Position numbers and translations under genes: made by a program. The notes beneath the pieces are model-generated. The model saw only the letters and a program-made list of their open reading frames with translations, was not told the origin of the DNA and made no database searches. Below, piece after piece: positions 46,359-64,000 of a stretch of DNA of 64,000 bases; position 1 is the stretch's first letter, and each line of letters begins with the position of its first letter. Source of the DNA: Candidatus Fervidifonticultor sextus (lineage in GTDB: Bacteria > Sysuimicrobiota > Sysuimicrobiia > Sysuimicrobiales > Humicultoraceae); the NCBI GenBank assembly GCA_031459875.1, contig JAVKHQ010000018.1, positions 1 through 64,000 on the forward strand, read 5' to 3'.

Positions 46359-46399
46359 CCGAGGCCCGGCCATCCAGACACACCGCAGAGGAGGACACC

Positions 46400-46804
46400 G
46401 TGAGCGACCATCCCGAGCCGACCACCACCCAATCCGACGAACGCCTGACACGCGGTCGAAGGGTGCGCGAGCAGATCATGGGGGCGGGAGTTCCCCCGGG
46501 GACCCCCGCCACCCAGGAGCTGGCGCCCTTCTTCTCGCGCTGGATCTACGAGAGCGTCTTCGGCGATCTGTACGGCCGTCCGCACCTCGACCTCAAGACG
46601 CGCGTCCTGATCACCCTGGTGGCCCTCTCCGTCCAGGGGCGGATCCCCCAGCTGCGGGGATACATCGGGGCGGCGCTGCGGCAGGGATGGACGCGTGAGG
46701 AGATCGTGGAGGCCATTGTGCAACTCGCCCCCTACCAGGGCGTGCCGCTGACGCACGACGCACTGGCCGCCGCCAGAGACGTCTTCGAGGCGCCGCCGCG
46801 ATGA
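46400..46804 (+). CDS. Carboxymuconolactone decarboxylase family protein
   Basis: FGDLYGRPHLDLKTR, EEIVE, YQGVP. Confidence 0.88.
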   Translation: MSDHPEPTTTQSDERLTRGRRVREQIMGAGVPPGTPATQELAPFFSRWIYESVFGDLYGRPHLDLKTRVLITLVALSVQGRIPQLRGYIGAALRQGWTREEIVEAIVQLAPYQGVPLTHDALAAARDVFEAPPR

Positions 46805-47778: not shown

Positions 47779-47813
47779 CACCCTGCAAGATAGCACGCGT
47801 CTCAGAAGGGGGG

Positions 47814-48782
47814 ATGATGACGATGCTGTACGCACTGCGGGCCGTCGCCGCAGCCCTGGTGACCGCCCTGGTGGTCGGCACCGCAGTACTGGCCCAGGGC
47901 ACCTATCCCAGCAAGCCCATCACGCTGGTCACCCACTCCAGCGTGGGCGCGGGGGGCGATCTGTTCCTCCGCAACCTGGCCAAGCACCTGGAGGGCATCG
48001 TCACCGTGCCGATCGTCGTCGAGAACCGGCGCGGCGGCGCGTCGGCCACGGCGGTCTCGTACGTGGCCACGAGCCCCACCGACGGCCACATCCTCTACGG
48101 CTCGACGCCGACCATGCTGCAGACGCCGATGCTCACCCAGACCCGGCACACCTACCTCGACCTGCAGCCGGTGGTCAACGTGTTCTTCGACCCGATGATC
48201 CTCTACGTGCGGGCCGACTCGCCCTGGAAGACCCTTCCGGACGTCATCGCCGCGGCGAAAGGCAAGCCCGGCCAGATCCGCTTCGGCGCCTCGACGCCGG
48301 GCTCGGTGGAGCACATGATCGCCCACCAGATCCAGAAGGTGGCCAAGATCCAGGTCCAGCCGGTCACCTTCGAGGGCGGCGGCGACCTGCTGCTGGCCGT
48401 CCTCGGCGGGCATGTGGACCTGGGCGTCGGCGAGTACGCGGAGGTGGCCGCCCAGGTGGAGGCCCGGCAGGTTCGCGTCATCAACTCCTTCACCGCCACC
48501 CGGATCCCGAAATCCACGATCCCCACAGCCAGGGAACAGGGCATCGACATGGTCGTGGAGAAATTCCGGGGCCTGCTCGGCCCGAAGGGGATGGACCCGG
48601 GCGCCATCGCCTACTGGGAGCAGGCCGTCAAGCGGGTGCTGGACAGGCCGGCCTACAAGCAGTACTACGAGTCGGTCTACCTGGTGCCGGCCTACATGGA
48701 CCACCAGCAGTACCGGTTCTACCTGGACCGGATGAACCAGACGCTCCGTCGCTACCTGAAGGAGATCGGCGTCATCAAGTAG
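47814..48782 (+). CDS. tctC: TTT substrate-binding protein TctC
   Basis: YPSKPIT, GAGGD, ENRRGG, LGGHVD. Confidence 0.92.
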   Translation: MMTMLYALRAVAAALVTALVVGTAVLAQGTYPSKPITLVTHSSVGAGGDLFLRNLAKHLEGIVTVPIVVENRRGGASATAVSYVATSPTDGHILYGSTPTMLQTPMLTQTRHTYLDLQPVVNVFFDPMILYVRADSPWKTLPDVIAAAKGKPGQIRFGASTPGSVEHMIAHQIQKVAKIQVQPVTFEGGGDLLLAVLGGHVDLGVGEYAEVAAQVEARQVRVINSFTATRIPKSTIPTAREQGIDMVVEKFRGLLGPKGMDPGAIAYWEQAVKRVLDRPAYKQYYESVYLVPAYMDHQQYRFYLDRMNQTLRRYLKEIGVIK

Positions 48783-48787
48783 CAGCC

Positions 48788-49237
48788 ATGCGGCGCGCGG
48801 ACCTGCTCGTCGGCGTCGGCCTGCTGGTCGTCGCGATCCTGTACTACCAGCAGACCTTCGCCATCACCGTCGGGTTTGCGTCCGACCGGCTGGGGCCGGC
48901 GTTCTTCCCCCGGCTGCTGGCGCTGGCCCTGGGGTCCTGCGCGGTGGCGCTGAGCTGGCGCTCGATCCGGGGGCGGTCGGACCCCGGTCCCCTGCCACCG
49001 GTCCAGGCTCGTCTGTTTCTGGCGACCCTGGGGCTGACGGTGGCCTACGCCCTCCTCCTCCCATCGCTCGGCTACCTGCTGGCCACCCCGCTCTACGTCG
49101 TCGCGGTCGTGGGCGTGTTGGGCTACCGTCACCCCGGAGGGCTCGCCGCCGCTGCGGTGGGGATCACGGGGGTGTTGTACCTGGTCTTCGTCCGTGCGCT
49201 GAAGGTGCTGGTCCCCATGGGGCCGTTGGGCAGGTAG
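48788..49237 (+). CDS. tctB: Tripartite tricarboxylate transporter TctB
   Basis: LGPAFFP, LGYL, LVF..L.V..P. Confidence 0.88.
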   Translation: MRRADLLVGVGLLVVAILYYQQTFAITVGFASDRLGPAFFPRLLALALGSCAVALSWRSIRGRSDPGPLPPVQARLFLATLGLTVAYALLLPSLGYLLATPLYVVAVVGVLGYRHPGGLAAAAVGITGVLYLVFVRALKVLVPMGPLGR

Positions 49238-49241
49238 GGCG

Positions 49242-50741
49242 ATGCTGGAACGCTTCGCGTTAGGCGCCCAGATCGCCCTCCAGCCGCTCTCGCTGCTGAT
49301 GATGCTGTTCGGGGTCGCCTGGGGCATCATCGGCGGCGCCCTGCCCGGCATCTCGGGGTCCATCGCCATGGCCCTGCTGCTCCCGCTCACGTTCGACATG
49401 GACCCGGCGGTGGCGTTGATGATGCTGGCGGGCGTCTACATCGGGGCGATGTACGGCGGATCCATCACCGCGATCCTCATCCGCACGCCCGGGACGCCGG
49501 GCGCGGCGGCAACCGTCATCGACGGGTACGAACTGCACAAGCGAGGGCTCTCGGGCAAAGCGCTGGGCGTCTCGCTCATCACCGGCACGATCGGCGGGAT
49601 CATCAGCGTTTTCATCCTGGTGGGGTTCGCGGTGCCGCTCTCGCGCCTGGCCCTGGCCTTCGGGCCGCCCGAGTACTTCGCGCTGGGGGTCTTCGGCCTG
49701 GCACTGATCAGCAGCTTCGTGGGACGGGACCTGCTCAAGGGCGCCATCTCGGGCCTGCTGGGGCTGATCGTCGCCACCGCGGGGACTGACCCGTTCTCGG
49801 GCACCCCGAGGTTTACCTTTGGAGGGACCGATCTGCTGACCGGGGTCGAGATCGTCGCCGGCATGATCGGCCTGTTCGCCGTCTCCGAGATGTTCTACCA
49901 GATCGCCGAGTCGGGAGCCTGGGAGACCATCAGGGGGAAGTTCAGCACCGACCTGCCGCGGTGGGTCGAGATTGTCAAACTCAAGACCGCCATGGTCATC
50001 GGCATCATCCTGGGCACCATCGAGGGTCTGCTGCCGGGCGGCGGGGGCGCGATCGCCGCCTTCATCTCCTACAACGAGGCCAAGCGCTGGTCGAAGCACC
50101 CCGAGGAGTTCGGGCACGGCTCCCTGGAGGGGGTGGCCGCGCCGGAGACGGCGAACAACGTCGTGACGGGCACGGCGATGATCCCGCTGCTGACCTTCGG
50201 CATTCCGGGATCGAACTCGGCAGCAGTGATGCTGGCGGCGATGATGCTTCACGGCGTCCAGCCCGGACCGCTCCTGTTCGAGCGGACGCCCCAGATCGTC
50301 TACGGGCTCTTCGTCGGCATGTTCATCGCCAACCTCATGATGCTGGGGCTCGGCTTCCTGTCGCTGCGGCCGGCCATCGCCGTCGTCAACATCCAGCGCC
50401 CGCTGCTGCTGGCCGGGATCCTGGCACTGGTGCTGGTCGGAGCCTACTCCATCAGCAACCGGATGTTCGAGGTGTGGGTGGTCCTGGCCACGGGCCTGCT
50501 GGGCTACGGCATGCGCCGCTACGGCTTCAACATTCTGGCCATGGTGCTGGGGCTGGTGCTGGGGTTCATGGTCGAGGTCAACCTCCGGCGCAGCCTGCTG
50601 ATCTCGCTGGGCAACCCGTGGGTCTTCTTCACGCGGCCCATCTCGGCCGTGCTGCTGCTCTTCGCGCTCATCACGCTGCTGTGGCCGGTCCTGCGGCAAC
50701 TGCGGGAGGACCGGCGGGCGAGGCGGGCGCCGGCGGCCTGA
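49242..50741 (+). CDS. tctA: Tripartite tricarboxylate transporter TctA
   Basis: GALPG, YGGSITAIL, PETANN, FGIPGS. Confidence 0.94.
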   Translation: MLERFALGAQIALQPLSLLMMLFGVAWGIIGGALPGISGSIAMALLLPLTFDMDPAVALMMLAGVYIGAMYGGSITAILIRTPGTPGAAATVIDGYELHKRGLSGKALGVSLITGTIGGIISVFILVGFAVPLSRLALAFGPPEYFALGVFGLALISSFVGRDLLKGAISGLLGLIVATAGTDPFSGTPRFTFGGTDLLTGVEIVAGMIGLFAVSEMFYQIAESGAWETIRGKFSTDLPRWVEIVKLKTAMVIGIILGTIEGLLPGGGGAIAAFISYNEAKRWSKHPEEFGHGSLEGVAAPETANNVVTGTAMIPLLTFGIPGSNSAAVMLAAMMLHGVQPGPLLFERTPQIVYGLFVGMFIANLMMLGLGFLSLRPAIAVVNIQRPLLLAGILALVLVGAYSISNRMFEVWVVLATGLLGYGMRRYGFNILAMVLGLVLGFMVEVNLRRSLLISLGNPWVFFTRPISAVLLLFALITLLWPVLRQLREDRRARRAPAA

Positions 50742-50752
50742 GGGCTGGCGCG

Positions 50753-51529
50753 GTGGACCTGCACCTGCGGGGCAGTGCCGTCCTGCTGGTCGGCGGCACG
50801 CGCGGCGTCGGACGCGAGGTGGCACGGCTGCTGGGCGAGGAGGGCGCCCGCCTGGCCCTGGTCGCCCGCGATCCCGACGCGCTGGACGCCACCGCCCGGG
50901 AGGTCCGCCAGCTCGGGGGCCAGGCGGTCACCATCGCCGCCGACGTGACCGATCCGGACCAGGCGGCGCGCGCGGTGGATCGGGCCGCCGGGGCGCTGGG
51001 GGCTTTCGACGCCTTGATCCACGCGGCGGGCAGGGGGTTCCGCGGGGTCTTCCTGGAGATCCCCGAGGCCACCTGGCGCGAGGCGTTCGATCTGAACGTC
51101 TTGGCACCGGTCCGGATGATCCGCCTGGCCGTGCCCCACCTGCGCAGGGGCGGCCGCATCGTGCTGCTGGGCGCCGCCTCGGCGAAGCAGCCGCAGGAGC
51201 GACAGGCGCCGTCCAATGCCGCCAAGGCGGCGCTGGCCAACCTCACCACCGCGCTGGCGCAGGAACTGGCCCCCAACCTGGTCGTCAACTGCGTCGCGCC
51301 GGGCCGGATTCTCACCGAGCGGCGCCGCGAGCGCGCCGCCGCCGAGGGCCGCGCCGCCGGCGCGACGGTCGAGGAGCAACTCCGCCGCGAAGCCGCCGAG
51401 GTGCCGCTGGGACGTCTGGGGGATCCCCGCGAGGTGGCCGGTCTCGTGGTCTTCCTCGCCTCCCCCTGGGCGTCCTACATCACGGGCCGCTCCATCATCG
51501 TCGACGGCGGACTGGTCCGCTCGGTCTGA
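50753..51529 (+). CDS. SDR-family oxidoreductase
   Basis: GGTRGVG, SNAAK (Tyr replaced by Ser in YxxxK), VNCVAPG, VDGG. Confidence 0.9.
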   Translation: MDLHLRGSAVLLVGGTRGVGREVARLLGEEGARLALVARDPDALDATAREVRQLGGQAVTIAADVTDPDQAARAVDRAAGALGAFDALIHAAGRGFRGVFLEIPEATWREAFDLNVLAPVRMIRLAVPHLRRGGRIVLLGAASAKQPQERQAPSNAAKAALANLTTALAQELAPNLVVNCVAPGRILTERRRERAAAEGRAAGATVEEQLRREAAEVPLGRLGDPREVAGLVVFLASPWASYITGRSIIVDGGLVRSV

Positions 51530-51542
51530 CTCGAATCCTGCG

Positions 51543-52976
51543 ATGCCGGCTGCAGACTCCGACGAACTGGTCGTCCCGCGCGCGCCCTGGCCGACCGCGG
51601 TCTGGCTGGGGGCGGGCGCCCTCTTCGTGCTGGCGGCGCTGCTGCCGCTTCCCGACGGGCTCTCGCGGCCGGGCGCGCAAGCCCTCGCCGGCCTGGCGGC
51701 GGCCGTCCTGTTCTGGGCCAGCGGCGTGCAGGACCCCGCCCATTCCGGCCTGATGATCGTGGCCCTGCTGACCCTGCTGGGGGTCATGCCCTTCGAAGAA
51801 GCCGCAGCCGGCTTCGGCGCGGAGTTCATCTGGCTGCTGGCCGCCACCTTCATCATCGCGCAGGCCATGGCTGACTGCGGGCTCGGCCGGCGGGTGGCGC
51901 TGGGCATCCTGCGCGCGGCGGGCGGCCGACCCTCCGCCGTGCTCCTGGCGCTGCTGGCGGTCGTGCTGGTCCTCTCGTTCATGGTGCCGACCGCGGCCGG
52001 GCGGATCTCGATGGTCCTGCCCGTGTGCCTGGGGATCATCGGCGCCGCGGGCATCCGACCGCCGTCGAACTTCGCCAAGGCCGTCTTGATCGGGACCTCC
52101 CATGCCTCCATCATGGCCGGCACCGGACTGCCCACCGCGGCCGGGGCGACGGTCTACGCCGTGGGGGCCTTCGGGACGCTCATCGGCGCGCGGTGGACGT
52201 ACCTGGGATGGATGGCGGCGTTCTTTCCGCTGGTCGTGGTCTTCACCGTCGGGCTGTGGCGGATCTTGCTGTGGGTCTTCCCGCCCGAGCGTGCGGACCT
52301 GGCGGGCGGCGCCGCCTACGTCCGCGACCAGTGGCGGCGCCTGGGCCCGCTGAGCCCTGGCGAGCGCAAGATGCTGGCTACCCTCGCCGGCATGTACGCG
52401 CTGTGGATCCTGGGGCCCCGCTGGCAGATCACCACCGCCCAGGCCGGGCTGCTGGGCGCACTGGTCCTCCTGCTCCCCGGGATGCAGCTGCTCACCTGGG
52501 AGCGGGCGCTGCGTGCGGTGAAGTGGGACATCCTGATTCTCTTCGCCGTCTCCCTCTCGCTGGCAGAAGCGCTGGAGCGTTCCGGCGCCGGCCGGTGGCT
52601 GGCGGCCTCGACCCTGACGGTCTTCCGCGACCCGTCCCCGCTGCTGGTCGCGGCGGTGCTGGCGCCGCTGATCCTGGTCGTGCGCGTCGGCTTCGTCAAC
52701 AACCTGGGGATGATCGCAGCGGGATTACCCCTGGCCTTCACCCTCGCGCGGGGATGGGGGTTGGACCCGCAGTGGGTCGGGATGCTCGTGGTGGTGGTCG
52801 CGGGGCCCGGATTCCTCCTCCCGACGCAGACGCCGACCGGGATGATCACGCTCGGCTACGAATTCTACGACATGCGGGACTACCTGCGATCGGGACTGCC
52901 GGCCTCGGCGCTGTTGATCCTGCTCGCCTGGGCGGCGGCACTGGCCTACTGGCCCCTGCTTGGGTATACACCCTGA
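51543..52976 (+). CDS. DASS/SLC13 anion permease
   Basis: Multiple TM helices, GLGRRVAL, VPTAAGR, W..L.LF, LPTQTP. Confidence 0.88.
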   Translation: MPAADSDELVVPRAPWPTAVWLGAGALFVLAALLPLPDGLSRPGAQALAGLAAAVLFWASGVQDPAHSGLMIVALLTLLGVMPFEEAAAGFGAEFIWLLAATFIIAQAMADCGLGRRVALGILRAAGGRPSAVLLALLAVVLVLSFMVPTAAGRISMVLPVCLGIIGAAGIRPPSNFAKAVLIGTSHASIMAGTGLPTAAGATVYAVGAFGTLIGARWTYLGWMAAFFPLVVVFTVGLWRILLWVFPPERADLAGGAAYVRDQWRRLGPLSPGERKMLATLAGMYALWILGPRWQITTAQAGLLGALVLLLPGMQLLTWERALRAVKWDILILFAVSLSLAEALERSGAGRWLAASTLTVFRDPSPLLVAAVLAPLILVVRVGFVNNLGMIAAGLPLAFTLARGWGLDPQWVGMLVVVVAGPGFLLPTQTPTGMITLGYEFYDMRDYLRSGLPASALLILLAWAAALAYWPLLGYTP

Positions 52977-53196: not shown

Positions 53197-53683
53197 CGAT
53201 AGTAGGGCAGAACAATTCCGGCGTCGTAGTATGACCGAAATCGTCCCGCGTGCTTCCGCAACCCAGCTCTTGCGGGGTCACCGCGGTTTCAGGGAAGTCC
53301 CCGTATGGTGCGACTCGCGGTGCTAATCATCTCCGGAGGAGGAGGTCGTATGGCCGAGCTGACACTTGCGGATCTCCAGCACGCCGCCGAAGAGGCCGCT
53401 TAATTAACGGGGTAGGGAAGATCACGAGACTCCAGGTGCCGCGCCGCCTGACTGACGACACCCTTCGCTACAGCGAACTGAACGGTGTGTCGTTTCAAGT
53501 GCGACAAGGGCAAGGCGCTTAACACGGTGACCGACCAACGCGACTCCCCTGTTCAAGCTCTGCCCCAAGAAACCAAAGGGGCTCGGGGGAAATTCGGGCG
53601 GGCGAACGTGTGACTGTCGTTAGAAGAGTGTCGGATGATTTTGTCGGCGGCGCTCAAGGTCGTCGCGCGGGAGGGCTGAAGTG

Positions 53684-56107
53684 ATGACTCGCGCGGAGGG
53701 ATACGGCAGGTTGTTCAGAAAGGCCACGGGACAGGAACCCTTTCCATACCAACGGTGCCTGGCCGAGGGGCCCGAGCTCCCGTCACTCGTGCGCGCGCCC
53801 ACCGGCGCCGGCAAGACCGCAGCGGCCGTCCTGGGCTGGCTCTACCGTCGCCGCTTTCACCCCGATGATAAGGTGCGGGCTGCCACCCCACGACGGCTTG
53901 CCTACTGCCTCCCCATGAGGGTTCTGGTCGAACAGACCCTGGATGCGGTGCGCGGGTGGCTGGGGAGGCTCGGCCTCAAAGGTGAGGTGGGCGTCTTCCA
54001 ACTCATGGGTGGTGTTCTCGAAGACGACTGGGTCCGGAGCCCTGGCCGAGATGCCCTCCTCGTGGGGACCATGGACATGCTGCTCTCCCGTGCGCTTAAC
54101 CGGGGTTACGCGGCGAACCGGGCCCGCTGGCCCCTCGAGTTTGGACTTCTCAACAACGACTGCCTGTGGGTCCTGGACGAGGTCCAGCTTATGGGTAACG
54201 GGCTCGCGGCCTCTGCGCAACTGGCCGCCTTCCGGCGGGCTTTCGGCACGGCGCGGCCGTGCCCGTCGCTCTGGATGTCGGCCACGGTGGATTCGACGTG
54301 GCTCGCCACCGTGGACCATTCACCCTCGGCGTCCGCGCTCGCCCTCACCGATGCAGACCGGTCCGGACCGTTGGGTATCCGTCTCCGGGCGACCAAAACG
54401 CTCCGGCGGGTCGCAGGAGGGCGCTGGCCCGACGACGGGCCTCGGGCGATCCTGGAGCGTCACCGCTTCGGGACACTCACCCTGGTCGTGGTGAACACGG
54501 TCGAGAGAGCGCGGAAGCTCCACGCGGCGCTCGAGCGGGCCGCTCCCGACGGCCTCGAGGTGAGGCTCCTCCACTCCCGTTTCCGCCCCCCGGATCGCCG
54601 TGCGGCGGTGAACGCGGCGCTGCGACCCATCGAGGGCACGGGCCGGATTGTGGTTGCCACCCAGGTGGTGGAGGCGGGCGTGGACGTGTCGGCCGCGACA
54701 CTGATCACGGAACTCGCTCCCTGGACGTCGCTTGTCCAGCGGTTTGGACGGTGCAACCGGTTCGGCGAGCACGAAGCCGGTGAGGTCTGGTGGATCGACC
54801 TCGCCACGGAGAGAGAGGTGGCCCCCTACGAACCTGAGGAACTGCGAGACGCACGCAAACGGTTGCGCGGCCTCGAGGGCCGCTCGGTGAACCCGGAAGC
54901 ACTGGAGGGATTAGAACCGGGGAAGCCGCCAGCGGTCCGCCATGTGCTCAGAAGGCCAGACCTCCTCGATCTCTTCGACACCGAGCCGGACCTTGCGGGT
55001 CACGACGTCGACGTCTCGCGCTTTATCCGCGACGACGCTGACGTCGACGTGCAGGTGTTCTGGCGGCGGTGGGAGGGAGACGCCCCGCCCGCCGACTTGT
55101 CCGGAGCATTGCCAGACGAGCTCTGCCCGGTGCCCGTCTGGGAAGTGCGCGAGTTCCTCTTCGGACGCGGCCGGCGGACTAGCGGGCGGATTGGCTACGT
55201 CTGGGACCACCTGGATCGCACCTGGCGACCGCTCACGGCTGAAGCACTCCGCCCTGGGATCGTGCTCCTCCTGCCCGCAGAGGCCGGTGGCTACAGCCCT
55301 GACGCCGGTTGGGACCGCGACAGGACCAGCCCCATAAACTTGGTGGTTGCCGCGGGGTCGCCCTCGCCCGAGGAGGGCTTAGACGACGAGCCTTCGGAGG
55401 AGGTGGCGGGAGCCTGGGTGACGCTTTCCGACCATCTAGGCCACGTAGAGCGGCGACTCGAAGAGCTTGCGGCGTCGGTCGGACCGGAGGTGGAGCCGTG
55501 GGTTCGGAAGGCGTCCAGCGTGGCTGCCCGGTGGCATGACGTGGGGAAGGCGCACCCCGTGTTCCAGCAGGCTCTTCTGGCTGGGGTCCCCGACGACGAG
55601 CGGGCCGTCCGCCAGGGAACCCTTTGGGCCAAGTCAGCCCTGACCGACCGACGTCTCGACTATAAGCGGCGGCACTTCAGGCACGAGCTGGCCAGCGCGC
55701 TCGCGCTCCTGGCCGCACCAGCGGAAGTCCACGGCCTGGGGGGGGAGGCACTGGACCTGGCCGCTTACCTCGCGGCTGCCCACCACGGCAAGGTGCGGAT
55801 GGCCATCCGGGCTCTCAGCGGAGAGAGGCGTCCGACGGAGGCGGGGCGACGCTTCGCCCGGGGCGTGTGGGACGGCGACCTCCTCGGGCCGCTTCAGCTG
55901 AACGGCGCCGTTCTCCCCAGGATTACGCTCGACCTTGGCGTCATGGAGGCGGGGCGCGGTCCTGACGGGCGGCTGTCCTGGTCGGAACGGGTGCTCCGGC
56001 TTCGCGACCGGCTGGGACCGTTCGTTCTCGCGTACCTCGAGGCGTTCCTGCGCGTGGCGGACTGGGAGGCCAGCGCTAACGAAGCATCCGGCGAGGGAGG
56101 TGACTGA
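53684..56107 (+). CDS. cas3: Type I-G Cas3 (SF2 helicase with C-terminal HD nuclease)
   Basis: APTGAGKT, LPMRVLVEQ, MLLSRALNRGY, DEVQ, MSAT, QRFGRCNR; C-terminal DH...WHDVGKA, RHELAS, AHHGK. Confidence 0.95.
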   Translation: MTRAEGYGRLFRKATGQEPFPYQRCLAEGPELPSLVRAPTGAGKTAAAVLGWLYRRRFHPDDKVRAATPRRLAYCLPMRVLVEQTLDAVRGWLGRLGLKGEVGVFQLMGGVLEDDWVRSPGRDALLVGTMDMLLSRALNRGYAANRARWPLEFGLLNNDCLWVLDEVQLMGNGLAASAQLAAFRRAFGTARPCPSLWMSATVDSTWLATVDHSPSASALALTDADRSGPLGIRLRATKTLRRVAGGRWPDDGPRAILERHRFGTLTLVVVNTVERARKLHAALERAAPDGLEVRLLHSRFRPPDRRAAVNAALRPIEGTGRIVVATQVVEAGVDVSAATLITELAPWTSLVQRFGRCNRFGEHEAGEVWWIDLATEREVAPYEPEELRDARKRLRGLEGRSVNPEALEGLEPGKPPAVRHVLRRPDLLDLFDTEPDLAGHDVDVSRFIRDDADVDVQVFWRRWEGDAPPADLSGALPDELCPVPVWEVREFLFGRGRRTSGRIGYVWDHLDRTWRPLTAEALRPGIVLLLPAEAGGYSPDAGWDRDRTSPINLVVAAGSPSPEEGLDDEPSEEVAGAWVTLSDHLGHVERRLEELAASVGPEVEPWVRKASSVAARWHDVGKAHPVFQQALLAGVPDDERAVRQGTLWAKSALTDRRLDYKRRHFRHELASALALLAAPAEVHGLGGEALDLAAYLAAAHHGKVRMAIRALSGERRPTEAGRRFARGVWDGDLLGPLQLNGAVLPRITLDLGVMEAGRGPDGRLSWSERVLRLRDRLGPFVLAYLEAFLRVADWEASANEASGEGGD

Positions 56108-56108
56108 G

Positions 56109-58277
56109 GTGCCTGAGGTACGGCTCTCGGGGTGCCAGCCGGAGCCCCTGGCGAGCTACCTGAAGGCCCTGGGGGTGCTCAAGGTGGTAGGGGAGCAGGG
56201 CGACCCCGAGGCCGTGGGGTGGTGGGACGGTCACGATTTCGTGCTCGCAGGCAAACTTTCGAAAGATGAGCTCGTCCGGTTTTTCTCACAGGACTACCGA
56301 CCCACGCCGATCCTCGCTCCCTGGAACAAGGACAGCGGTTTCTACCGGACCGACACGGCCATCGAGGCCATCGAGCGCACTACCGATCCGCGTCTCAAGG
56401 AGTTCCGGCGAGCGATCGAGGTAGCGCGCCAGGTCCTCGACGAATTCGGGTGGAGCACGGCACCGGGGAGCGGGACGGAGAAGATGGCCTTTGTGGCGGC
56501 GCTCCGTTCGCGTCTGCCGGACGGCTGCCTGGAGGGCCTGGACGCCATGGTGGCCTTGGTCGGAGATGACCTGTCGTGGGCCCCGCTGTTCGTGGCGGGC
56601 GGGGTGGACGGACGCTTCGAGTTCACTCGCCGCTACGCCGAGTCGGTGCTGGCTGCCCTTGACATCGCCGGCGGGCGCCGTTGCCGAGGCGGGCGGCGAT
56701 CATCGCGCGGGACGAGTGCCCCCTCTTCGGCACCCGGCCTCCGCATGGCGCTCTTCGGCGAGCCCGAGCCGGGCGTGGCGGAGGAGGACACGGGCGGCCT
56801 CCTGGCACCCGGCAGCGTGGACGCCCCGAACGCCTCGGAGGGATTCGTGGGCCCAAAACGGCTCAACCCCTGGAACTACGTGCTCGCCCTCGAGGGGGCA
56901 GTCGTCCTCGCCGGGTCCGTGTCTCGCCGGTTCGGGTCGAACTTGACCCGTGCCGCCTTCCCGTTCGCGGTGAGCGCCAGCGCTGCTGGGCACGCCGGGG
57001 TGGGCACTGAGGCCTCGCGCGGAGAGGTCTGGTTACCCCTCTGGGAACAACCCCTCACGGCCCGAGAGGCCAGGCAGCTGTTCCGCGAGGGGCGGGCCGA
57101 GTGGGCAGGGCGGCTCGCGAGCACGGCCGCCGACATGGCGCGGGCTCTCGTCTCTCTCGGTGTGGACCGCGGGCTTCGGGAATTTCGCCGGTACGGCATA
57201 CAGGGCAGGAGTGGCAGGAGCTACCTCGCTGTTGCCCTGGGCCGCTGGCCGGTCGTGGCTCGGCCCGAGGCACCCCTTCTCGCGCAACTAGACGAATTTC
57301 TCGGGGAGCTGCGCGTGGCGGCCTCCCGCAGGAACGCCCCGGCGGCCCTCACCGACGCGCTGCGGCGCGTGGATGCCGCTATCCTGAACTACACAGCCTT
57401 CGGGAGTCGAGATCGCCTGATCGAGGTGCTCGTAGCCACCTCTCAGGCGGAGCACACGTTGGCCCGCCGGCCAGGAGCACGACGAGGTGGTACACCCCGC
57501 CCCCTACCCGGACTCAGCCCCGACTGGGTGGGTGCCGTGGACGACGGGTCGGTGGAGTTCGAGCTGGCCGCCGCCGTAGCCTCGCTGAAACCGGCTGAGT
57601 CCGGTCCGGGCCCTTTTCGTCGGCACCTGGAGCCGCTACTCCTGCGACGGGGGCGATGGGAGTGGGCCGATACGGTGCCCCATGAGGTGGTGTGGTCGGG
57701 CCGCGACGTCCTGCTCGACATGGCCGCCGTACTTGAGCGTAGGCTGGTAGACGCAGCGCGGGAGAGCGTGGTCCCGCCCCTGGACGGATGGGTGAGGGCT
57801 CACCCGTCCGCGGTTGCCGCTCTGGTGGAAGGAGAGGTGGACCTGGCGCGCCTGGCGCGGCTCTGTGAGGCGCTGACCCTGGTCAATTGGCGTGATGCCG
57901 CAGGTGGCTCTTGGCTGTCCGGACGACGGTATCCTTCCCCGGTGGGGGCCTCGAGCTACCCGGTCCTCAAACTCGTCCTACTCGGACGACCGTTCCAAGC
58001 GGGGGAGGTGCAGGTCGTGATCCGGCCGGACCAGACAACCCTCGGGTTGCTGCGGGCCGGGAACGTCTGGGGCGCCGCCGCCCGGGCGGCGCGGCGGTTG
58101 CGCGCCGCGGGATTGTCTGTCCGGGGCATTCCGGACGAGGGGGCGAGCGCGCCCATTCGCCAGGATCCCGAGCTCGGGCAGCGGCTGCTCGCAGCGTTGC
58201 TGGTCCCGGTGTGGGAGGCCCCACTGCTTCGCCAGGCATTGGTGGAAGAAGAGAGACTGGAGGAGGTAGGAGCATGA
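56109..58277 (+). CDS. cas8g: Type I-G large subunit Cas8g (Csx17)
   Basis: LSGCQPEPLASYLKALG, PTPILAPWN, NPWNYVLALEG, RGEVWLPLW, EGRA, LGVDRG. Confidence 0.92.
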   Translation: MPEVRLSGCQPEPLASYLKALGVLKVVGEQGDPEAVGWWDGHDFVLAGKLSKDELVRFFSQDYRPTPILAPWNKDSGFYRTDTAIEAIERTTDPRLKEFRRAIEVARQVLDEFGWSTAPGSGTEKMAFVAALRSRLPDGCLEGLDAMVALVGDDLSWAPLFVAGGVDGRFEFTRRYAESVLAALDIAGGRRCRGGRRSSRGTSAPSSAPGLRMALFGEPEPGVAEEDTGGLLAPGSVDAPNASEGFVGPKRLNPWNYVLALEGAVVLAGSVSRRFGSNLTRAAFPFAVSASAAGHAGVGTEASRGEVWLPLWEQPLTAREARQLFREGRAEWAGRLASTAADMARALVSLGVDRGLREFRRYGIQGRSGRSYLAVALGRWPVVARPEAPLLAQLDEFLGELRVAASRRNAPAALTDALRRVDAAILNYTAFGSRDRLIEVLVATSQAEHTLARRPGARRGGTPRPLPGLSPDWVGAVDDGSVEFELAAAVASLKPAESGPGPFRRHLEPLLLRRGRWEWADTVPHEVVWSGRDVLLDMAAVLERRLVDAARESVVPPLDGWVRAHPSAVAALVEGEVDLARLARLCEALTLVNWRDAAGGSWLSGRRYPSPVGASSYPVLKLVLLGRPFQAGEVQVVIRPDQTTLGLLRAGNVWGAAARAARRLRAAGLSVRGIPDEGASAPIRQDPELGQRLLAALLVPVWEAPLLRQALVEEERLEEVGA

Positions 58278-59368
58278 GTCTGCTGGAGACCATCGAGTCG
58301 CGGATCCTGATCGAGGCCGACCTTTGGCCCCTCCAAGGGGAGCGGTTCCAGCCCACGGGATTTCCGGACTTGGGGGCGGCGGTCTACCGGCTTCCCGACG
58401 GGACGCAGAAGCTCCTCGTGGAGTCGCCACAGTCCATGGCGAACCGGCTGGAGGCCGTCTGCTGGGATGAGGCCAACAACGACCTCGTCGATGAGTTGCG
58501 AGGTCTGCCGTACGTCCGCATCGACCTCGGCCGCTTCGGCATTACCTCTTCGATTCTCGAGTTCCACCGGCTCAACTCGCCTTACATCTGGGAACTGGAG
58601 GGCGATGCGCGCCGGCAGCGGTTCCAGGAGGCTGTGTACCGCGAGCTGGGCGTGGAGGGTCGGCGAGCACCGCGCCGCGGCCGTGGCGCGGATGAGGAGC
58701 AGGAGGGGCGTACGGACGTGCCTGGGGTCGTGGACGTCCGGCGCTTGACGCGCCTCTGCCTCCGCTACGACCCGAACTCCATCGTCCACGGCGTGTTCCT
58801 CGAGAAGATCGCAGGGCGGTTCCGGCTTCCCCGAGCGCTCTCCGCGTTCATCGAAGCCACCAATGTGGCCCCCGCCGAGTCGGGGGGCGTGAAGTTTGAC
58901 CGCGTCTTCCCGGAAGCAGATCGGGGGCGTGGCATCCAGTCGGAGCAGGGATTTGCCAACGTTCCCTTCCCGCGGACCGAGTTCACCGCAACAAGTATCA
59001 CCTCCTACTTCAATCTCGACCTCGCGCTTCTGCGATCCTACGGCCTGCCCCCCGAGGGGGAGCGACTCGTGCGATGCCTCGCGCTCTGGAAGGTCCGGCG
59101 GTTCCTGGACGGGGGCCTGAGGCTTCGGACTGCGTGCGACCTCGAGTGCCGGGCGGTTCGCGTGACGCGCCCGGCGGGCGATGGCCTCCCGGCCGGTCCC
59201 GAGATGGACGCCGCGGTTCGAGAGGCCATCCAGGCCTGTGGTCGCGCCGGCTGCTTCGCCGACCCGCCGGTCACTGAGGTCCAGACACGAGTGCCCGAGC
59301 GATCTGGGGCCAGGCGCCGCGGGGCGGGCGAGAAGGCCGAGGATCGGGAGGAAGACGAGGGGGCTTGA
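58274..59368 (+). CDS. cas7g: Type I-G Cas7g (Csb1)
   Basis: RFQPTGFPDLGAA, LVESPQSMANRLE, HRLNSPY, DPNSIVHG, LRLRTACDL. Confidence 0.93.
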   Translation: MSLLETIESRILIEADLWPLQGERFQPTGFPDLGAAVYRLPDGTQKLLVESPQSMANRLEAVCWDEANNDLVDELRGLPYVRIDLGRFGITSSILEFHRLNSPYIWELEGDARRQRFQEAVYRELGVEGRRAPRRGRGADEEQEGRTDVPGVVDVRRLTRLCLRYDPNSIVHGVFLEKIAGRFRLPRALSAFIEATNVAPAESGGVKFDRVFPEADRGRGIQSEQGFANVPFPRTEFTATSITSYFNLDLALLRSYGLPPEGERLVRCLALWKVRRFLDGGLRLRTACDLECRAVRVTRPAGDGLPAGPEMDAAVREAIQACGRAGCFADPPVTEVQTRVPERSGARRRGAGEKAEDREEDEGA

Positions 59369-59396
59369 GGAGCCGCGCGCCCATAGGAGGTGGACC

Positions 59397-60806
59397 GTGT
59401 CGACCGCTATTGAGGTTAGGCTTCTGGCCGGGCGGTTCCACGCCACGCCCTGGGGCCGGCACGTCAACGAGGCGGCCCTGGAGTGGCCACCGGCTCCGTG
59501 GAGGATCCTGAGGGCGCTGGCGGCGGGGCTGGCGCGTGCAGGGGCAGATACGGATCGCTGCTGTCGCCTCCTGGCGCCGCTTCTCGGTGCGCCCGCATAC
59601 CACCTACCCCATGCCTCCGCGGCGCACATCCGCCACTTCATGCCGTGGGAGAAACAGCCGGGCACCCCGGAGAAAGTGCTCGTGTTCGACGCCTTCGTGG
59701 TGACGCGCGAGCCGCTCGTGGTGTGCTGGGACGCCGACGTGCAAGATCAGGAAGCGCTCGAGAAGGCGCTGGAGCGGGTGGGGTACCTGGGTCGATCCCA
59801 ATCGTGGGCGGAGCTGCGGCTCCTGGAGCGGCCGCCCGAACGCGGGCCGAACTGCGTACTGGCAGGGCCGGGCCAGGTGCGGGAGGATGAAGAGGTCGTG
59901 GAACTCCTCGCCCCGGACCCCACCGACCCGCACGCGGCGTTGAAGGCGCTCTTCGTGACCACCGACGAGGTGCGTAAAGCCGGCCTCGACCGGCCCCTCG
60001 GTAGCCGCTGGCTGCGGTACCGCCGCCCGCGCATCGTGATCGACCCGCTGCCGTCGCGGCCTTCCCAGCGGACGGCTGGTGGGATGCTGCCCACGACCGC
60101 GGTGTACCTGGCTGAGGGGGCTGCCCCCCCTCCCATCACAGAGGCTCTGTACGTCTCTGAGCTCTTTCGCAGGAGTGTCATGGCGTGGTACGGCCGGCTG
60201 AATGAGAGGGCCACATCGTCTGTCCTTTCGGGGAAAGACGCCCTCGGTCGGCCGCTGGAAGGCCACCGTCATGCCTTCTACCTCGCCATTGATGTGGATG
60301 GCGACCGCCGGATCGACCGGGTTGTGATTCACGCCCCTGCGGGTCTTGGGCGGTCTGAGCGGGAGGCGCTTGCAGCGGTCCGGACGCTTGAGTCTGGCAG
60401 GGGAAGGCCGCCACTGCACCTGCATCTCCTCGGCTTCGGGACGCCGGAGCGCTTTACCTCTCAGGCCTTCGGCCCCGCCCGCAGGTGGCGTTCGCACACG
60501 CCCTTCCTCTTGGTCCGCCACCCGAAGGTTCGCGGCGCGGCAGAAGCCCGACGCATCCTCGACAATCCTGCGGACCAGGTGCTCCTAGAGCTGGAACGCA
60601 GAAGGATGCCGCGACCCACCTCAATCAGGCCCGTCCGCGGACCAGGCTTCCAGTGGCTCGAGTTCCGGACCCACCGGTCGGGCGACGCAGGCCCACCCGG
60701 AGCGTGGGGGTTCGAGCTGGAATTCGCAGAGCCCGTGGCCGGGCCCATCGCCCTCGGCCGCCACTGCCACTTCGGAATGGGTGTGTTCCTGCCCGCCGAG
60801 CCATGA
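59397..60806 (+). CDS. csb2: Type I-G Csb2 (Cas5/Cas6 fusion)
   Basis: GRFHATPWG..EWPPAPWRILRAL, YLGRSQSW, GHRHA, C-terminal GPIALGRHCHFGMGVF. Confidence 0.93.
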   Translation: MSTAIEVRLLAGRFHATPWGRHVNEAALEWPPAPWRILRALAAGLARAGADTDRCCRLLAPLLGAPAYHLPHASAAHIRHFMPWEKQPGTPEKVLVFDAFVVTREPLVVCWDADVQDQEALEKALERVGYLGRSQSWAELRLLERPPERGPNCVLAGPGQVREDEEVVELLAPDPTDPHAALKALFVTTDEVRKAGLDRPLGSRWLRYRRPRIVIDPLPSRPSQRTAGGMLPTTAVYLAEGAAPPPITEALYVSELFRRSVMAWYGRLNERATSSVLSGKDALGRPLEGHRHAFYLAIDVDGDRRIDRVVIHAPAGLGRSEREALAAVRTLESGRGRPPLHLHLLGFGTPERFTSQAFGPARRWRSHTPFLLVRHPKVRGAAEARRILDNPADQVLLELERRRMPRPTSIRPVRGPGFQWLEFRTHRSGDAGPPGAWGFELEFAEPVAGPIALGRHCHFGMGVFLPAEP

Positions 60807-62497
60807 TGCTGCTTACGATTCTGGGACAGGAGGCACGGGACGCTGTGTACGCCCTCGGGAGCAGCCACCATCGGGCGCCACTAGCCCCCCTGGCCATCGT
60901 GCACCTGCGCGGCGGTTTCAGCCGTGTGATCGCTTTTTGCACGCCGGAGGCGGAGGAGAGGACCCTACCCGTCCTCCAGAAGGGGCTCCCGCAGGGCGTA
61001 GTCGTGGAGCCAAGGCCGATTTCGTTACCGACGACCGACGCAGGCATCGCGCCTTTCTTGGAGAAGGTGGGCGAGGCGATCCAGGATGCCGGAGGCCCGG
61101 TGATCCTGGACGTGACCCACGGACCCCGCCACTTGCCCCTTCTCGCCTTTACCACCGTTCTCTATCTCTCCGCCCTCGGGCGAGGCCGCGTAGAGGGCGT
61201 CTACTACGCCTACCTCCAGCCCGGCGGCCCCTCGCCCATCATCGATCTAACGCCCCTCCTGGAACTCGCCACCCTCGCCTTCGCCGCGGGCGAGCTCCGT
61301 CGAACCGGCAGCACCGCGGCGCTGGTTGAGCGGCTGGAAAACGACCCTTCGCAGGAAGCCAAGCATGTGCGCTCGCAGCTCCGCGCGCTCGCGGCGGCGT
61401 GCGCCTCCGGCCTGCCCCTTGAGGCAGGGTTGGAGGCGGCCCGGTTCCGCCGGGACTACCGGCGCCGCCTGGAACACTGGCTCCGCAGCCAGGAGATCCC
61501 CCTGGCAGGTGCGCTGGTACAGGCCATCGACGAGGAACTTGCCCGCGTCGCCTTGCGCGAGCACCGGCCCGCCGACGGGGAGAAGGGCGCGATCCCCTTG
61601 ACCAAAGACGAGCTGGAACGGCAGGCCCAGCTCGTTGACATCCTCTTTCAGCGCGAGGCCTACGGCCCCGCAGCCATCGCGGCCCAGGAGTGGGCCGTGT
61701 CCTGGGCGGTCCTCCAGGGTGGCGAAGCCGACCGCTGGCTCGAGAGGGAGACACGCGAGCGGGCCTTGCGCCGGCTCAACGCCCTCGCGGCGCACGCGGA
61801 AGATGCCGGGCTGCGGAACCGGCTCTCAGAGGATCAGACGCGGGTGGCCTGCTTCTGGATCGAACTCAGGGAACTGCGGAACTCCTTTGCCCACGCGGGC
61901 ATGCGAAAAGAGATCGTGGACCCCTGGCGCTCGAAGGGCAAGCTCGCTGAACTTTTGCGCCGGGTGTCCGAGGGGTGGTACTGGGCGAAGCAGATGTCGG
62001 AGGTGAGTTTGCAGATACCGGGTGCCGTGGCACGGATCCTGGTGACGCCCGTGGGCCGGATCCCCGGTGCCTTTTACACGGCCCTCGCGCAGGTCGAGTC
62101 TGTGGACCGGTGCTTCTGCGTCTGCTCGCCGGAGACCGAGGGCAACGTGGACGAAGTCCTGACGAGGGCCTCGCAGCGGCCGAAGGTGGTCCGCGTGTCG
62201 CTCGCCGACCCTTACCGCGATCTCGATGGGGCGCGCCGGCTCGCCAGGAAGGCGCGCGGCGAGCTGGCCCTGGCGGACGAGGTGGTGGTCAACCTGACGG
62301 GTGGAACCACGCTCATGGGGCTGGGGGTGGAGTGGATGGCTGAGGAGGCCAGGCGGCTCGGGCGGCGGGTGCGTCGGCTTGTGGTGCTGGACCGGCGCTC
62401 CCGGGCGGAGCAGGAACGGGACCCCTACGTGGTCGGCGAGGCCGTCTGGCTCGAGGAGGGAGGGCCGTCGGGGTGTTCCTGGTCGGGTACGACGTAG
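60803..62497 (+). CDS. csx1: Csx1-like CARF-HEPN ribonuclease with an additional C-terminal CARF-like domain
   Basis: LDVTHGPR (DxTHG), IIDLTPLL, HEPN RNSFAH; C-terminal ILVTPVGRIPG...VVVNLTGGT. Confidence 0.85.
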   Translation: MMLLTILGQEARDAVYALGSSHHRAPLAPLAIVHLRGGFSRVIAFCTPEAEERTLPVLQKGLPQGVVVEPRPISLPTTDAGIAPFLEKVGEAIQDAGGPVILDVTHGPRHLPLLAFTTVLYLSALGRGRVEGVYYAYLQPGGPSPIIDLTPLLELATLAFAAGELRRTGSTAALVERLENDPSQEAKHVRSQLRALAAACASGLPLEAGLEAARFRRDYRRRLEHWLRSQEIPLAGALVQAIDEELARVALREHRPADGEKGAIPLTKDELERQAQLVDILFQREAYGPAAIAAQEWAVSWAVLQGGEADRWLERETRERALRRLNALAAHAEDAGLRNRLSEDQTRVACFWIELRELRNSFAHAGMRKEIVDPWRSKGKLAELLRRVSEGWYWAKQMSEVSLQIPGAVARILVTPVGRIPGAFYTALAQVESVDRCFCVCSPETEGNVDEVLTRASQRPKVVRVSLADPYRDLDGARRLARKARGELALADEVVVNLTGGTTLMGLGVEWMAEEARRLGRRVRRLVVLDRRSRAEQERDPYVVGEAVWLEEGGPSGCSWSGTT

Positions 62498-63804
62498 CAG
62501 GCGTCCACCGGTACGTGTTCGAGCCCGTGCGGCCCGTGGACATCTTCGGTGGGTCGGCACTGCTGGAGCGGTTCGCTGAGGAGGCGGCGAAGGTCGCGAG
62601 CGAGAAGGGCGCGACTGCCATCTACTCAGCCGGAGGAACGGGGCTCTTCCTGGCGGGAACTGAAGGCGCGGCAGCGTCGCTGGTGGGGAGACTCCCGGAG
62701 ATCTTGGACGGGTTGACCGCGGGCGGGGCGCGGTGTACGGTCGCCCGGGTGCAGTTCCGGGGCGACTTCCGCGCGGATCGCCGGCTGCTAGCAGACCGGC
62801 TCCGCGCCGAGCGGTTCCGGAAGGCCCTGGAGGACCCGCCCCGTGTGCTCCTCCCAATGGGGACCCGACCCGCGCAGGTGTGCGAGGCGTGCGGCAGGGA
62901 AGGGCGGACCGTGACCCGCAGGGTTGGGAACCGGGAAGAGGAGTTAGGGCCGCGCTGTCAGGCTCGTTACATGGCCAGCCGGGGGAGGGCTCCCACCATC
63001 GCCGAGGTGCTGGGGGGAGATGGCGACGACGTTCCGAGGGGCGCCGTCCTGGCGGCGGTCTACGTTGACGCCGACGGGTTGGGGACGCAGCTTGCGGAAG
63101 TCCGAAGCGCGGAAGAGCTCGGCCGCTTCTCGAAGCAGCTGACGCACTCCGTGCAGCGCGCGGTCGAGCGCGCGATTCAGGCGCTGGCTCCCCTTCCCGT
63201 CATTCAGGTGGCGGTCGGTGGGGACGATGCCCTCCTCTTCTGCGACGCCGCGCGGCTGCCGGAGCTTGCCAGCGCCCTGTGGGAGGTGCTCGGGCACGCC
63301 TCCTCGGAGCTCGGCGTACGGTTCTCCACCGGCGTGGTGCTGGGGGAACCCTTCCTCCCCCTCCGGCTTTACTTCGCCGAGGCCGAGGAGGCCCTTCGGG
63401 AGGCGAAGCGGCATAGCCACGCCACCGGTCGGGCTTGCGCAGGCGTACGGGCGCTCATGGCGGGGACGCGTCACGGCGTGCGGGGCGACCTCCTTGGCGG
63501 TCCGCTCCCCCAGGAAGCGTTTACGGGCGAGGGGGGCGTGTGGCGCCTGGTAGAACTGGTCCGGGCCGTCGGTCCATCACAGCGTGCCGGGCTGGGCGAC
63601 GAGCTCGCCCTCAAGTCCCGGGAAGAGGCCGCGCTGTCGGTGGAATACCGGGCCTCCAGGGACAAGGCCGTGGGGGAGGCGTACCTCGGCGCGCGAAACC
63701 TGGCTGAGCTTTATGGGGTCGAACCCCTTGCGCTGCTCGGTGGTGCCCTCGCCCTCAGCGCTGCCAGAGAACGTTGGGAGCCCGCGAGGGAAGGGGAGCG
63801 ATGA
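62473..63804 (+). CDS. cas10: Compact HD-less Cas10 (type III large subunit)
   Basis: DV..V..YVF...GGSALL, IYSAGG (Palm1), CEAC...GPRC, VYVDADGLG, GGDD (63217-63228), FSTGV, AEEAL..AK. Confidence 0.88.
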   Translation: MFLVGYDVAGVHRYVFEPVRPVDIFGGSALLERFAEEAAKVASEKGATAIYSAGGTGLFLAGTEGAAASLVGRLPEILDGLTAGGARCTVARVQFRGDFRADRRLLADRLRAERFRKALEDPPRVLLPMGTRPAQVCEACGREGRTVTRRVGNREEELGPRCQARYMASRGRAPTIAEVLGGDGDDVPRGAVLAAVYVDADGLGTQLAEVRSAEELGRFSKQLTHSVQRAVERAIQALAPLPVIQVAVGGDDALLFCDAARLPELASALWEVLGHASSELGVRFSTGVVLGEPFLPLRLYFAEAEEALREAKRHSHATGRACAGVRALMAGTRHGVRGDLLGGPLPQEAFTGEGGVWRLVELVRAVGPSQRAGLGDELALKSREEAALSVEYRASRDKAVGEAYLGARNLAELYGVEPLALLGGALALSAARERWEPAREGER

Positions 63805-64000
63805 TGAGCGGCTGGGTGCTCGAGTTCCATCCCCGGTCCCCGCTGCTGGTGGCCTCCGTCTGGGATCCGGCCGCAGGAGCCCACCTAGCCTCCGTGTCCC
63901 TGTCCGGCCCCGACGGAGAGCCAAGGGCCCTGCTGCCCGGAAGCTCGCTCCGGGGGGTCCTACGGGAAGCGTTGGCCCGGTTCGCCGAGGCGCGGGGAGG
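63801..64000 (+). CDS. Type III RAMP (Cas7-group) protein, truncated by the window end
   Basis: ...PRSPLLV...LLPGSSLRGVLRE; ATGA overlap with the cas10 stop. Confidence 0.85.
   Translation, partial: MMSGWVLEFHPRSPLLVASVWDPAAGAHLASVSLSGPDGEPRALLPGSSLRGVLREALARFAEARG

Follow-up and report, generated by a model that had tools for sequence, protein, structure and literature searches.

A 64,000-nt stretch of DNA from the hot-spring bacterium Candidatus Fervidifonticultor sextus (G000:C10:1-64000, hereafter the window) ends in an unbroken string of CRISPR-associated (cas) genes, in which the interference genes of a type I-G CRISPR system run directly into those of a III-D-like system. The reading favoured here, to which a probability of about 0.7 is assigned, is that of a single horizontally acquired locus in which a III-D-like interference and signalling module has been inserted into a type I-G operon, with csb2 on one side of it and the I-G adaptation genes on the other. 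As judged from family and domain matches, this module would consist of csx1, a compact cas10 without HD domain, a cas7-cas5-cas11 fusion gene and csx7, to which related loci add two cas7 genes and a small open reading frame (ORF). The identities, order and junctions of the genes can be read directly from the sequence, the layout as well as the key motifs are conserved among related loci, and the complete relatives hold neither a separate cas6 nor a separate array type.

The genome is a metagenome-assembled draft of 67 contigs with 96% completeness, and the contig carrying the window ends at position 66509, 2.5 kb beyond it. ORF listing combined with family scans yielded, on the plus strand from 53681 onwards, cas3g, cas8g/csx17, cas7g/csb1, csb2, csx1, cas10 and the fusion gene in immediate succession (Table 1). 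The original prediction, made from the letters of the window, had named the genes in this order; the family scans agree with it, and a letter-by-letter check reproduced its junctions, which amount to +1, -4, +28, -4, -25 and -4 nt from cas3g to the fusion gene. The gene at the end of the window, which it had described as a RAMP gene, is real and encodes a 667-residue Cas7-Cas5-Cas11 fusion. Its statement that cas6, cas1/cas2 and a CRISPR array are absent from the 64-kb window was confirmed by the scans. Purine-rich stretches resembling GGAGG or GAGG precede six of the seven starts in the window, csx1 being the exception.

Table 1. Features of the composite cas locus and the region directly upstream of it (window positions, unless given as contig positions).
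Feature	Position	Strand	Remarks
Upstream non-coding stretch	53523..53680	+	Putative promoter and 5' untranslated region for the whole cluster, assigned by position only
cas3g	53681..56107	+	808 aa; 1-nt gap to cas8g
cas8g/csx17	56109..58277	+	722 aa; ATGA 4-nt overlap with cas7g
cas7g/csb1	58274..59368	+	364 aa; 28-nt gap to csb2
csb2	59397..60806	+	469 aa; ATGA 4-nt overlap with csx1
csx1	60803..62497	+	564 aa; 25-nt overlap with cas10
cas10	62473..63804	+	443 aa; ATGA 4-nt overlap with the fusion gene
cas7-cas5-cas11 fusion, 5' end in window	63801..64000, running to contig 65804	+	667 aa
csx7	contig ~65794-66507, running off the contig end at 66509	+	TIGR02581

The four type I-G proteins are full length and score well above the curated cut-offs. 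Cas3g matches TIGR02621 with 780.5 bits (cut-off 400) and the PADLOC model of Cas3g at 6.5e-270, and its Pfam domains comprise DEAD and Helicase_C followed by a C-terminal Cas3_HD at residues 578-800, the HD position of type I-G. Cas8g/Csx17 reaches 584 bits with TIGR04113 (cut-off 150) and 1.5e-175 with PADLOC Cas8g, while Cas7g/Csb1 is recognised by PF09617 (119.5 bits), by TIGR02570 (93.8 bits, cut-off 38) and by PADLOC Cas7g. The Cas5-Cas6 fusion protein Csb2 matches TIGR02165 with 144.6 bits (cut-off 45) and PADLOC Cas56g at 8e-124; a sequence search of solved structures returned no match for it. Thus, the subunit set that marks type I-G, namely Cas8g, Cas7g and Csb2, is complete.

The Cas10 of the adjoining module is recognised through its second palm domain (palm2) by PF22335, with a score of 49.5 against a cut-off of 27, and by the PADLOC model of Cas10 (3e-24), with PADLOC Cas10d matching as well. 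Compared with the sequences of solved Cas10 proteins, its similarity is weak (E ~3e-4) and confined to the palm2 region. In an AlphaFold2 (AF2) model of high mean pLDDT (predicted local distance difference test, 89.9) the beta-strand of the first palm begins at residue 2, and because the chain starts with this strand the protein lacks an HD domain, as III-D Cas10 proteins usually do (PMC11026444). Moreover, among PDB entries the fold of the model is matched best by chain C of 8s9u, a type III-D complex of Synechocystis (E 9e-16, query TM-score (TMq) 0.71-0.75), ahead of the III-A and III-B Cas10s. The palm start, the Cas10d match and the fold match together identify an HD-less Cas10 of the III-D kind. 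The G249-G250-D251-D252 motif, the zinc-site cysteines C137, C140 and C162, and the S52-x-G54-G55 motif of the first palm are invariant in 18 of 18 sequences, at identities down to 42%.

This Cas10 belongs to a small subfamily. Among 5.8 billion proteins, a search with the single sequence returned 20 relatives and a profile search 24; the only named member from NCBI found by the latter is a 'hypothetical protein' of a Thermoleophilia metagenome-assembled genome (MAG), and no myxobacterial member was returned. An exhaustive profile search of 1.84 billion representatives gave 36 proteins at E <=1e-30, about 29 of which are near-full-length or fragmentary members of the subfamily. Below this level of significance follows a continuum of Cas10 proteins of 450-600 residues that match in the palm-zinc-palm core only, amounting to 2574 proteins in all at E <=1e-3. 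Ten of the nearest Cas10 clusters are metagenomic, contain one or two members each and are unnamed or termed 'hypothetical protein'. Public records label the relatives P0018 and P0021 as 'hypothetical protein' and, in one case, as 'nucleotide-binding universal stress UspA family protein'. The family is not identified as Cas10 by standard annotation.

Csx1 has the architecture CARF-HEPN-CARF, as indicated by PADLOC PDLC01840 (CARF_HEPN_CARF, 1.5e-107), and its DxTHG motif is captured by TIGR02549 with 27.9 bits against a cut-off of 21; a CARF domain is combined with the R-x4-6-H motif of HEPN nucleases. The residues D103-x-T105-H106-G107 and R359-N360-x-x-A363-H364 as well as the C-terminal CARF-like segment NLTGGTTLMGL are invariant in all five orthologues. 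A sequence search of solved structures returned matches at the level of the CARF domain only. Csx1 is a putative RNase activated by cyclic oligoadenylate (cOA).

In the fusion protein, PADLOC models match in the order Csm3 (residues 44-183), Cas5_IIId (346-519, 2.4e-8) and Csm2 (554-607). Csx10-type Cas5 is a signature of type III-D. The Csx10-like segment of the fusion scores 16.5 bits with NCBIfam TIGR02674, whose cut-off is 177.3. The best Foldseek matches are chain A of the III-D structures 8s9t-8s9x (E 5e-17, compared with 6e-9 for the next entry), although this result serves as a ranking hint only, owing to the poor AF2 model (pLDDT 59.4), and by sequence only the Cas7 domains of Cas7-11 were matched among solved structures. 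Domain order and fold ranking agree with the Cas7-Cas5-Cas11 fusion of type III-Dv, and the ORF is conserved in four loci. The gene that follows encodes a Csx7-type Cas7, exceeding the TIGR02581 cut-off of 108.05 with 131.6 bits.

These protein features bear on the possibility that one of the two modules no longer interferes, with the I-G genes being kept for crRNA (CRISPR RNA) processing and adaptation only, or with the Cas10 complex cutting RNA or acting in regulation without signalling. Such a loss would be in keeping with the unusually small, HD-less Cas10, with its faint resemblance to solved Cas10 proteins and with a Csx10-like domain that falls far short of the family cut-off. It is nevertheless unlikely, given that Cas3g, Cas8g, Cas7g and Csb2 are full length, that the GGDD, zinc-site and SxGG residues have been retained at considerable sequence divergence, and that all five loci keep, beside cas10, a CARF-HEPN effector whose DxTHG and RNxxAH motifs are intact and which would be pointless without a cOA signal.

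The layout recurs elsewhere. Contigs were fetched on the basis of the Cas10 relatives, and their gene order was mapped by tblastn with eight proteins of the locus. The same order was found in L004 (contig C11 of the Gaiellales MAG G094, with 41% identity in Cas10), in L007 and in L009/L008, the latter two being near-identical and counted as one locus, and it holds in L011 and in L067 (genome G376) over the portion covered by their contigs; L010 (1.3 kb) is too short to contain the junction. The original prediction had proposed a search for the csb2-csx1-cas10 adjacency in other genomes, and in all five related loci with enough upstream flank csx1 indeed follows csb2 directly, with an ATGA 4-nt overlap in L004 and L007 and with spacings of <=~10 nt in L009 and L011 and <=~80 nt in L067. 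In the relatives, csx1 and cas10 overlap by up to 4 nt or are separated by up to 1 nt. The 25-nt overlap at 62473-62497 is specific to the present genome, where the C-terminal tail of Csx1 is about 8 residues longer than in the relatives.

Two of these loci, L008 and L004, extend to the CRISPR array and reveal the distal genes: Csx7 is followed by two further Csm3-like Cas7 proteins, a small ORF, a Cas4/Cas1g fusion, Cas2g, a leader of about 250 nt and the array. PADLOC Cas1g matches at 3e-178 in L008 and 3e-177 in L004, in each case with an N-terminal Cas4 domain, and Cas2g is supported by a PADLOC match in L008 and by tblastn only in L004. The array repeats after cas2 end in ...CCCCTTTGAAGC and ...CCCCATTGAAGC, with one repeat type per locus, and no cas6 is present in either. 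The small ORF between the last type III cas7 and cas4/cas1 (L008:7531-7884, L004:15799-16122) encodes about 110-117 residues with 33% identity and has no PADLOC or other family match, including none to Csx19; its product may be a diverged subunit akin to Cas11 or Csx19. In addition, two unrelated genomes carry the PADLOC candidate defence gene PDC-S01 within or next to an I-G locus, at L004:16422-17723 (minus strand, before cas4/1; E 9e-87) and at L054:12034-13338 (2e-88).

In the genome under study, a k-mer scan detected a single CRISPR array fragment, C25:41-297, with four copies of a 36-nt repeat GTTTCC...ATTGAAGC. This repeat type is the one found in L008 and L004: it follows cas2 in L004, while the variant ...TTTGAAGC follows cas2 in L008. 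The repeat, being 36 nt long and ending in TTGAAGC, has the form given for I-G arrays in PMC11237760, and its linkage to the cas genes of the window is drawn by analogy. Within the window, a 19-nt portion of the repeat had no match with up to 3 mismatches, including the surroundings of the putative promoter. The partial spacer at the start of C25 (C25:1-300) repeats the third spacer and resembles an assembly loop, and on account of this duplication the true array is probably longer.

In the predicted fold of the repeat, 4 nt precede a stem of 8 bp closed by a 4-nt loop, and 12 nt follow (-14.1 kcal/mol, z -2.8), a geometry that agrees with the I-G repeat of Thioalkalivibrio, where cleavage by Csb2 takes place 4 nt 3' of the stem and gives an 8-nt handle (PMC9638904). 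The Csb2 of that organism acts as pre-crRNA endonuclease and carries a catalytic histidine in its C-terminal Cas6 domain (PMC9638904). Here, histidines at ORF positions 295, 297 and 463, in the C-terminal half of Csb2, are invariant in all 16 Csb2 sequences aligned, which come from hybrid as well as ordinary I-G loci, and one of these histidines falls within the terminal glycine-rich motif. The latter may be the counterpart of the Thioalkalivibrio catalytic residue H503. Csb2 is the sole Cas6-like pre-crRNA endonuclease found, and as such it would feed both effectors. This supply of crRNA by Csb2 had been proposed in the original prediction; the retained histidines, the lack of cas6 in L004 and L008 and the precedent of Haliangium ochraceum, in which cmr1-6 together with csb2 and a mini-array confer target-dependent abortive infection in Escherichia coli (preprint 10.1101/2023.06.23.546230), lend it support at the level of sequence comparison. 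A dedicated cas6 or a second repeat type, either of which was to speak against it, was found neither in L004 and L008 nor in the genome scans.

These findings also concern a second alternative, according to which two self-sufficient systems lie side by side, the III-D system uses its own Cas6 and array elsewhere, and the tight spacing reflects genome compaction. Type III loci are common near type I loci; moreover, the draft comprises 67 contigs and part of the locus is missing, so that cas6 or a second array could lie in unassembled sequence, and the search for Cas6 relied on two models only. Nonetheless, the type III genes stand between the I-G interference and adaptation genes rather than beside them, both relatives that reach the array combine the lack of cas6 with one repeat type, and csb2 and csx1 lie close together in each of the five loci. 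Together with the whole-genome k-mer scan, which found a single array of the I-G repeat type, and with the lack of Cas6 by the same two models in G094, this renders the coexistence of two independent systems distinctly improbable.

With regard to its origin, the locus is not a trait of the host lineage. No close relative of this Cas10 was found by a single-protein scan of species genomes, nor was this Cas10 present in 60 relatives of the host or in the phylum's 93 other genomes, among which G045 showed only a weak palm2 match in an open frame of 757 residues; its absence from the relatives of the host therefore marks the locus as foreign. Moreover, the GC content at third codon positions (GC3) is 0.79-0.85 in the cas genes, compared with 0.84-0.95 in the flanking transporter and metabolic genes (0.89-0.95 in seven of eight), and owing to this lower value the cas cluster looks like a later arrival. 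The upstream region (42406-52976) encodes a GntR/FCD regulator, a symporter of the Na/sulfate-citrate type and two sets of tripartite tricarboxylate transporters (TctB, TctA, TctC; TctC, TctA). That the locus is an assembly or binning artefact joining pieces of two organisms, as a metagenome-assembled draft of many contigs might suggest, has a negligible probability, since independent contigs from other data sets, with protein identities of 41-77%, show the same order, the eight cas genes are uniform in GC and GC3, and genes overlap across the supposed joint.

Outside the host phylum, the class of G094 was surveyed, in which a strong Cas10 match occurs in G094 only among 401 genomes and Csb2 in 23 of 401. 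Twenty-five stretches around Csb2 matches were mapped by tblastn, with type III genes detected by means of the proteins of this locus at E 1e-4, a setting under which divergent genes could be missed in those ordinary loci that have room for them. In nine loci csb2 lies directly before cas4/1, with 15-582 nt between match ends, and nine others show an alternative order with csb2 ahead of cas3; one ends at the contig edge, two have neither adaptation genes nor type III matches downstream (partly checked with PADLOC), and one (L068, G376 contig C92) gave no tblastn match. The remaining three stretches, one from G376 and two covering a single locus of G272, contain embedded type III genes, so that, with G094 (through L004), three of the 23 I-G-bearing genomes have type III genes embedded in an I-G locus.

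The locus of G272 (L065:1-20000 and L066:1-17000, contig C1 ~3.262-3.299 Mb, minus strand) differs in that I-G genes are interleaved with two III-D-like sets. The first set, between cas3g and cas8g, encodes a Cas10 divided between two ORFs, together with a Cas7-Cas5 fusion, a double Cas7 and one large Cas7, while the second, after csb2, encodes Cas5d, Cas7d, Csx19, a large Cas7d and Csx1 as well as a Cas6-like half of Csb2 that stands alone (316 residues). A full csb2 and a Cas6-like csb2 half, the latter adjoining Csx1, thus occur in one interleaved locus. Trees were computed from 20 rows for Csb2 and 17 for Cas7g, after removal of the fragments L066 and L011 from the latter, and they comprise the loci whose Csb2 was matched at 1e-8. 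Both place G272 together with a non-hybrid locus (support 100/100), and from its placement relative to the compact-Cas10 hybrids it follows that the merging of I-G with III-D arose at least twice. A single origin of the hybrid layout was not supported: the trees need three changes of the hybrid label, and the starred branches force at least two.

Under the reading of one composite locus, a promoter upstream of cas3g would drive the entire cluster, and Cas4/Cas1g together with Cas2g would add spacers to a single array with the 36-nt I-G-type repeat. The Cas6 domain of Csb2 would then cleave the repeats 4 nt 3' of the stem, giving rise to crRNAs with an 8-nt AUUGAAGC 5' tag, and this single crRNA pool would arm two effectors. 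The first, the I-G Cascade composed of Cas8g, Cas7g and Csb2, would find DNA flanked by a protospacer adjacent motif (PAM) and recruit Cas3g. The second, a III-D complex composed of Cas10, Cas7-Cas5-Cas11 and the further Cas7 proteins, would bind and cut target transcripts, whereupon the GGDD palm of Cas10 would produce cOA and thereby switch on the HEPN RNase of Csx1. The expected outcome is layered immunity out of one spacer set. Co-transcription of the genes, cleavage by Csb2, loading of both complexes, cOA synthesis and activation of Csx1 are inferred steps.

Several points weigh against this reading. The linkage of the array to the cas genes rests on the relatives, because the C25 array sits on another contig, and the 67 contigs of the genome yielded no cas1 with TIGR00287 and no cas4/1, cas2 or further cas7 by tblastn, the contig ending before the position where adaptation genes would be expected; the distal stretch with two cas7 genes, cas4/1, cas2 and the leader is thus missing from the assembly. 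Stand-alone Cas6 was absent from both G000 and G094, each with one Cas10 above the family cut-off, according to two models (TIGR01877 and PF10040), with Cas6e- and Cas6f-type proteins not searched for. Furthermore, Csb2 of type I-G remains bound to the 3' hairpin of the crRNA (PMC9638904), and the takeover of a Csb2-bound crRNA by a type III complex is so far without explanation. Regarding co-transcription, no RNA run is listed among the sequencing runs that contain the locus, these being four DNA runs from one study. A consensus scan gave no sigma-70-like promoter, by an E. coli-type model that may not fit the host phylum, and therefore the promoter role of the stretch upstream of cas3g is based on position only; the small ORFs directly upstream of this stretch have no family match. 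Terminator-like sites numbered five compared with 4.7 expected, with nothing above chance, and such scans are weak evidence either way, being compatible with an internal promoter. Finally, the compact-Cas10 hybrids fall into two clades, each well supported, whose position relative to one another and to the non-hybrid loci the trees leave unresolved.

Among characterised systems, the type III-Dv complex of Synechocystis sp. PCC 6803 (PDB 8s9t-8s9x; PMC11026444) is one of the closest, sharing the HD-less GGDD Cas10, a fusion gene directly after cas10 and CARF-HEPN accessory genes. On the other hand, it possesses its own Cas6-2a, adaptation genes, array, Cas7-2x fusion and Csx19 (PMC11026444), whereas the present locus has no cas6, the further Cas7 proteins are encoded by three separate genes in the relatives, and the small ORF lacks a Csx19 match. 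The Cas10 described here is also about 130 residues shorter (443 versus 575), and the whole module lies inside an I-G operon. In terms of sequence, the likeness is below phmmer detection for the fusion and marginal for Cas10. The I-G system of Thioalkalivibrio sulfidiphilus has the same interference set of Cas3g, Cas8g, Cas7g and Csb2, and the repeats of both systems measure 36 nt, with the stem separated by a 4-nt spacer from a handle of 8 nt, yet in Thioalkalivibrio I-G and III-B are described as separate loci (PMC9638904), whereas here type III genes are placed between csb2 and the adaptation genes. The III-B system of Haliangium resembles the proposed arrangement in that a type III effector receives crRNA from Csb2 without a stand-alone Cas6, but it is a Cmr1-6 system with SAVED-CHAT and caspase effectors, not a III-D system with Csx1 (10.1101/2023.06.23.546230).

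Sharing of crRNA between type I and type III systems has been reported for I-F and III-B in Marinomonas mediterranea (PMC5576922) and for Pyrococcus furiosus (PMC4666368), where, as would apply here, one spacer set serves a DNA-targeting type I and a transcript-sensing type III effector and thereby provides redundancy against escape mutants. Unlike in these organisms, the present locus encodes both effectors in a single run of genes, and one of the Cascade subunits serves as its processing enzyme. The Marinomonas and Pyrococcus systems reportedly consist of separate operons and employ a stand-alone Cas6.

Hybrid loci of the same two subtypes are already on record. Supplementary file 2 of a myxobacterial survey (PMC11237760) names seven hybrids with repeats ending in TTGAAGC, of which three are labelled 'Hybrid(I-G,III-D)', a further three 'Hybrid(I-G,III-B)' and the last 'Hybrid(I-C,III-B)'; the main text mentions 'seven hybridized systems' without analysing them. 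Compared as table rows only, the I-G/III-D entries combine both subtypes in one cas cluster of 16-18 kb and have repeats of 36-37 nt ending in (C)ATTGAAGC or GTTGAAGC. The original prediction therefore overrated the novelty, and of its proviso that the arrangement might prove common and catalogued, the second part applies and the first does not, the layout being rare, though not unprecedented. The general phenomenon is known, comprising crRNA sharing between types I and III, catalogued I-G/III hybrids and Csb2 serving III-B. An analysis of a nested I-G/III-D operon was not found in the literature naming both Csb2 and Cas10, to the extent that its text was accessible. New, and undescribed as far as these searches reach, are the nested III-D-in-I-G layout and the rare, compact and unannotated Cas10 subfamily.

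A more tentative extension, which for the time being is rather doubtful, regards the compact Cas10 of 430-470 residues and its Cas7-Cas5-Cas11 partner as a distinct III-D lineage that travels as a passenger in I-G operons only, having shed any Cas6, adaptation genes, array and HD nuclease of its own and come to depend on crRNA made by Csb2. Such hybrids would then constitute the route by which some III-D systems came to possess a Csb2-derived Cas6 and I-G-type Cas4/Cas1. In a bolder version, the HD-less type III complex may pass the destruction of DNA to the co-encoded Cas3g.

If a single pool of crRNA cut by Csb2 does arm both Cascade/Cas3 and a cOA-signalling type III complex from one operon, two-layer CRISPR immunity would be found here in a natural form that is about as compact as any, in which mutants that escape through changes in PAM or seed would still be caught via their transcripts. 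This raises the biochemical question of how Csb2, which is normally held on the 3' hairpin, releases the crRNA or shares it with a second effector. Moreover, the HD-less Cas10 of 443 residues could serve as a minimal cyclase scaffold. Taken together, the embedding of type III genes in three of 23 I-G-bearing genomes and the involvement of I-G in six of the seven hybrids of the myxobacterial survey suggest that type I-G is prone to merge with type III.

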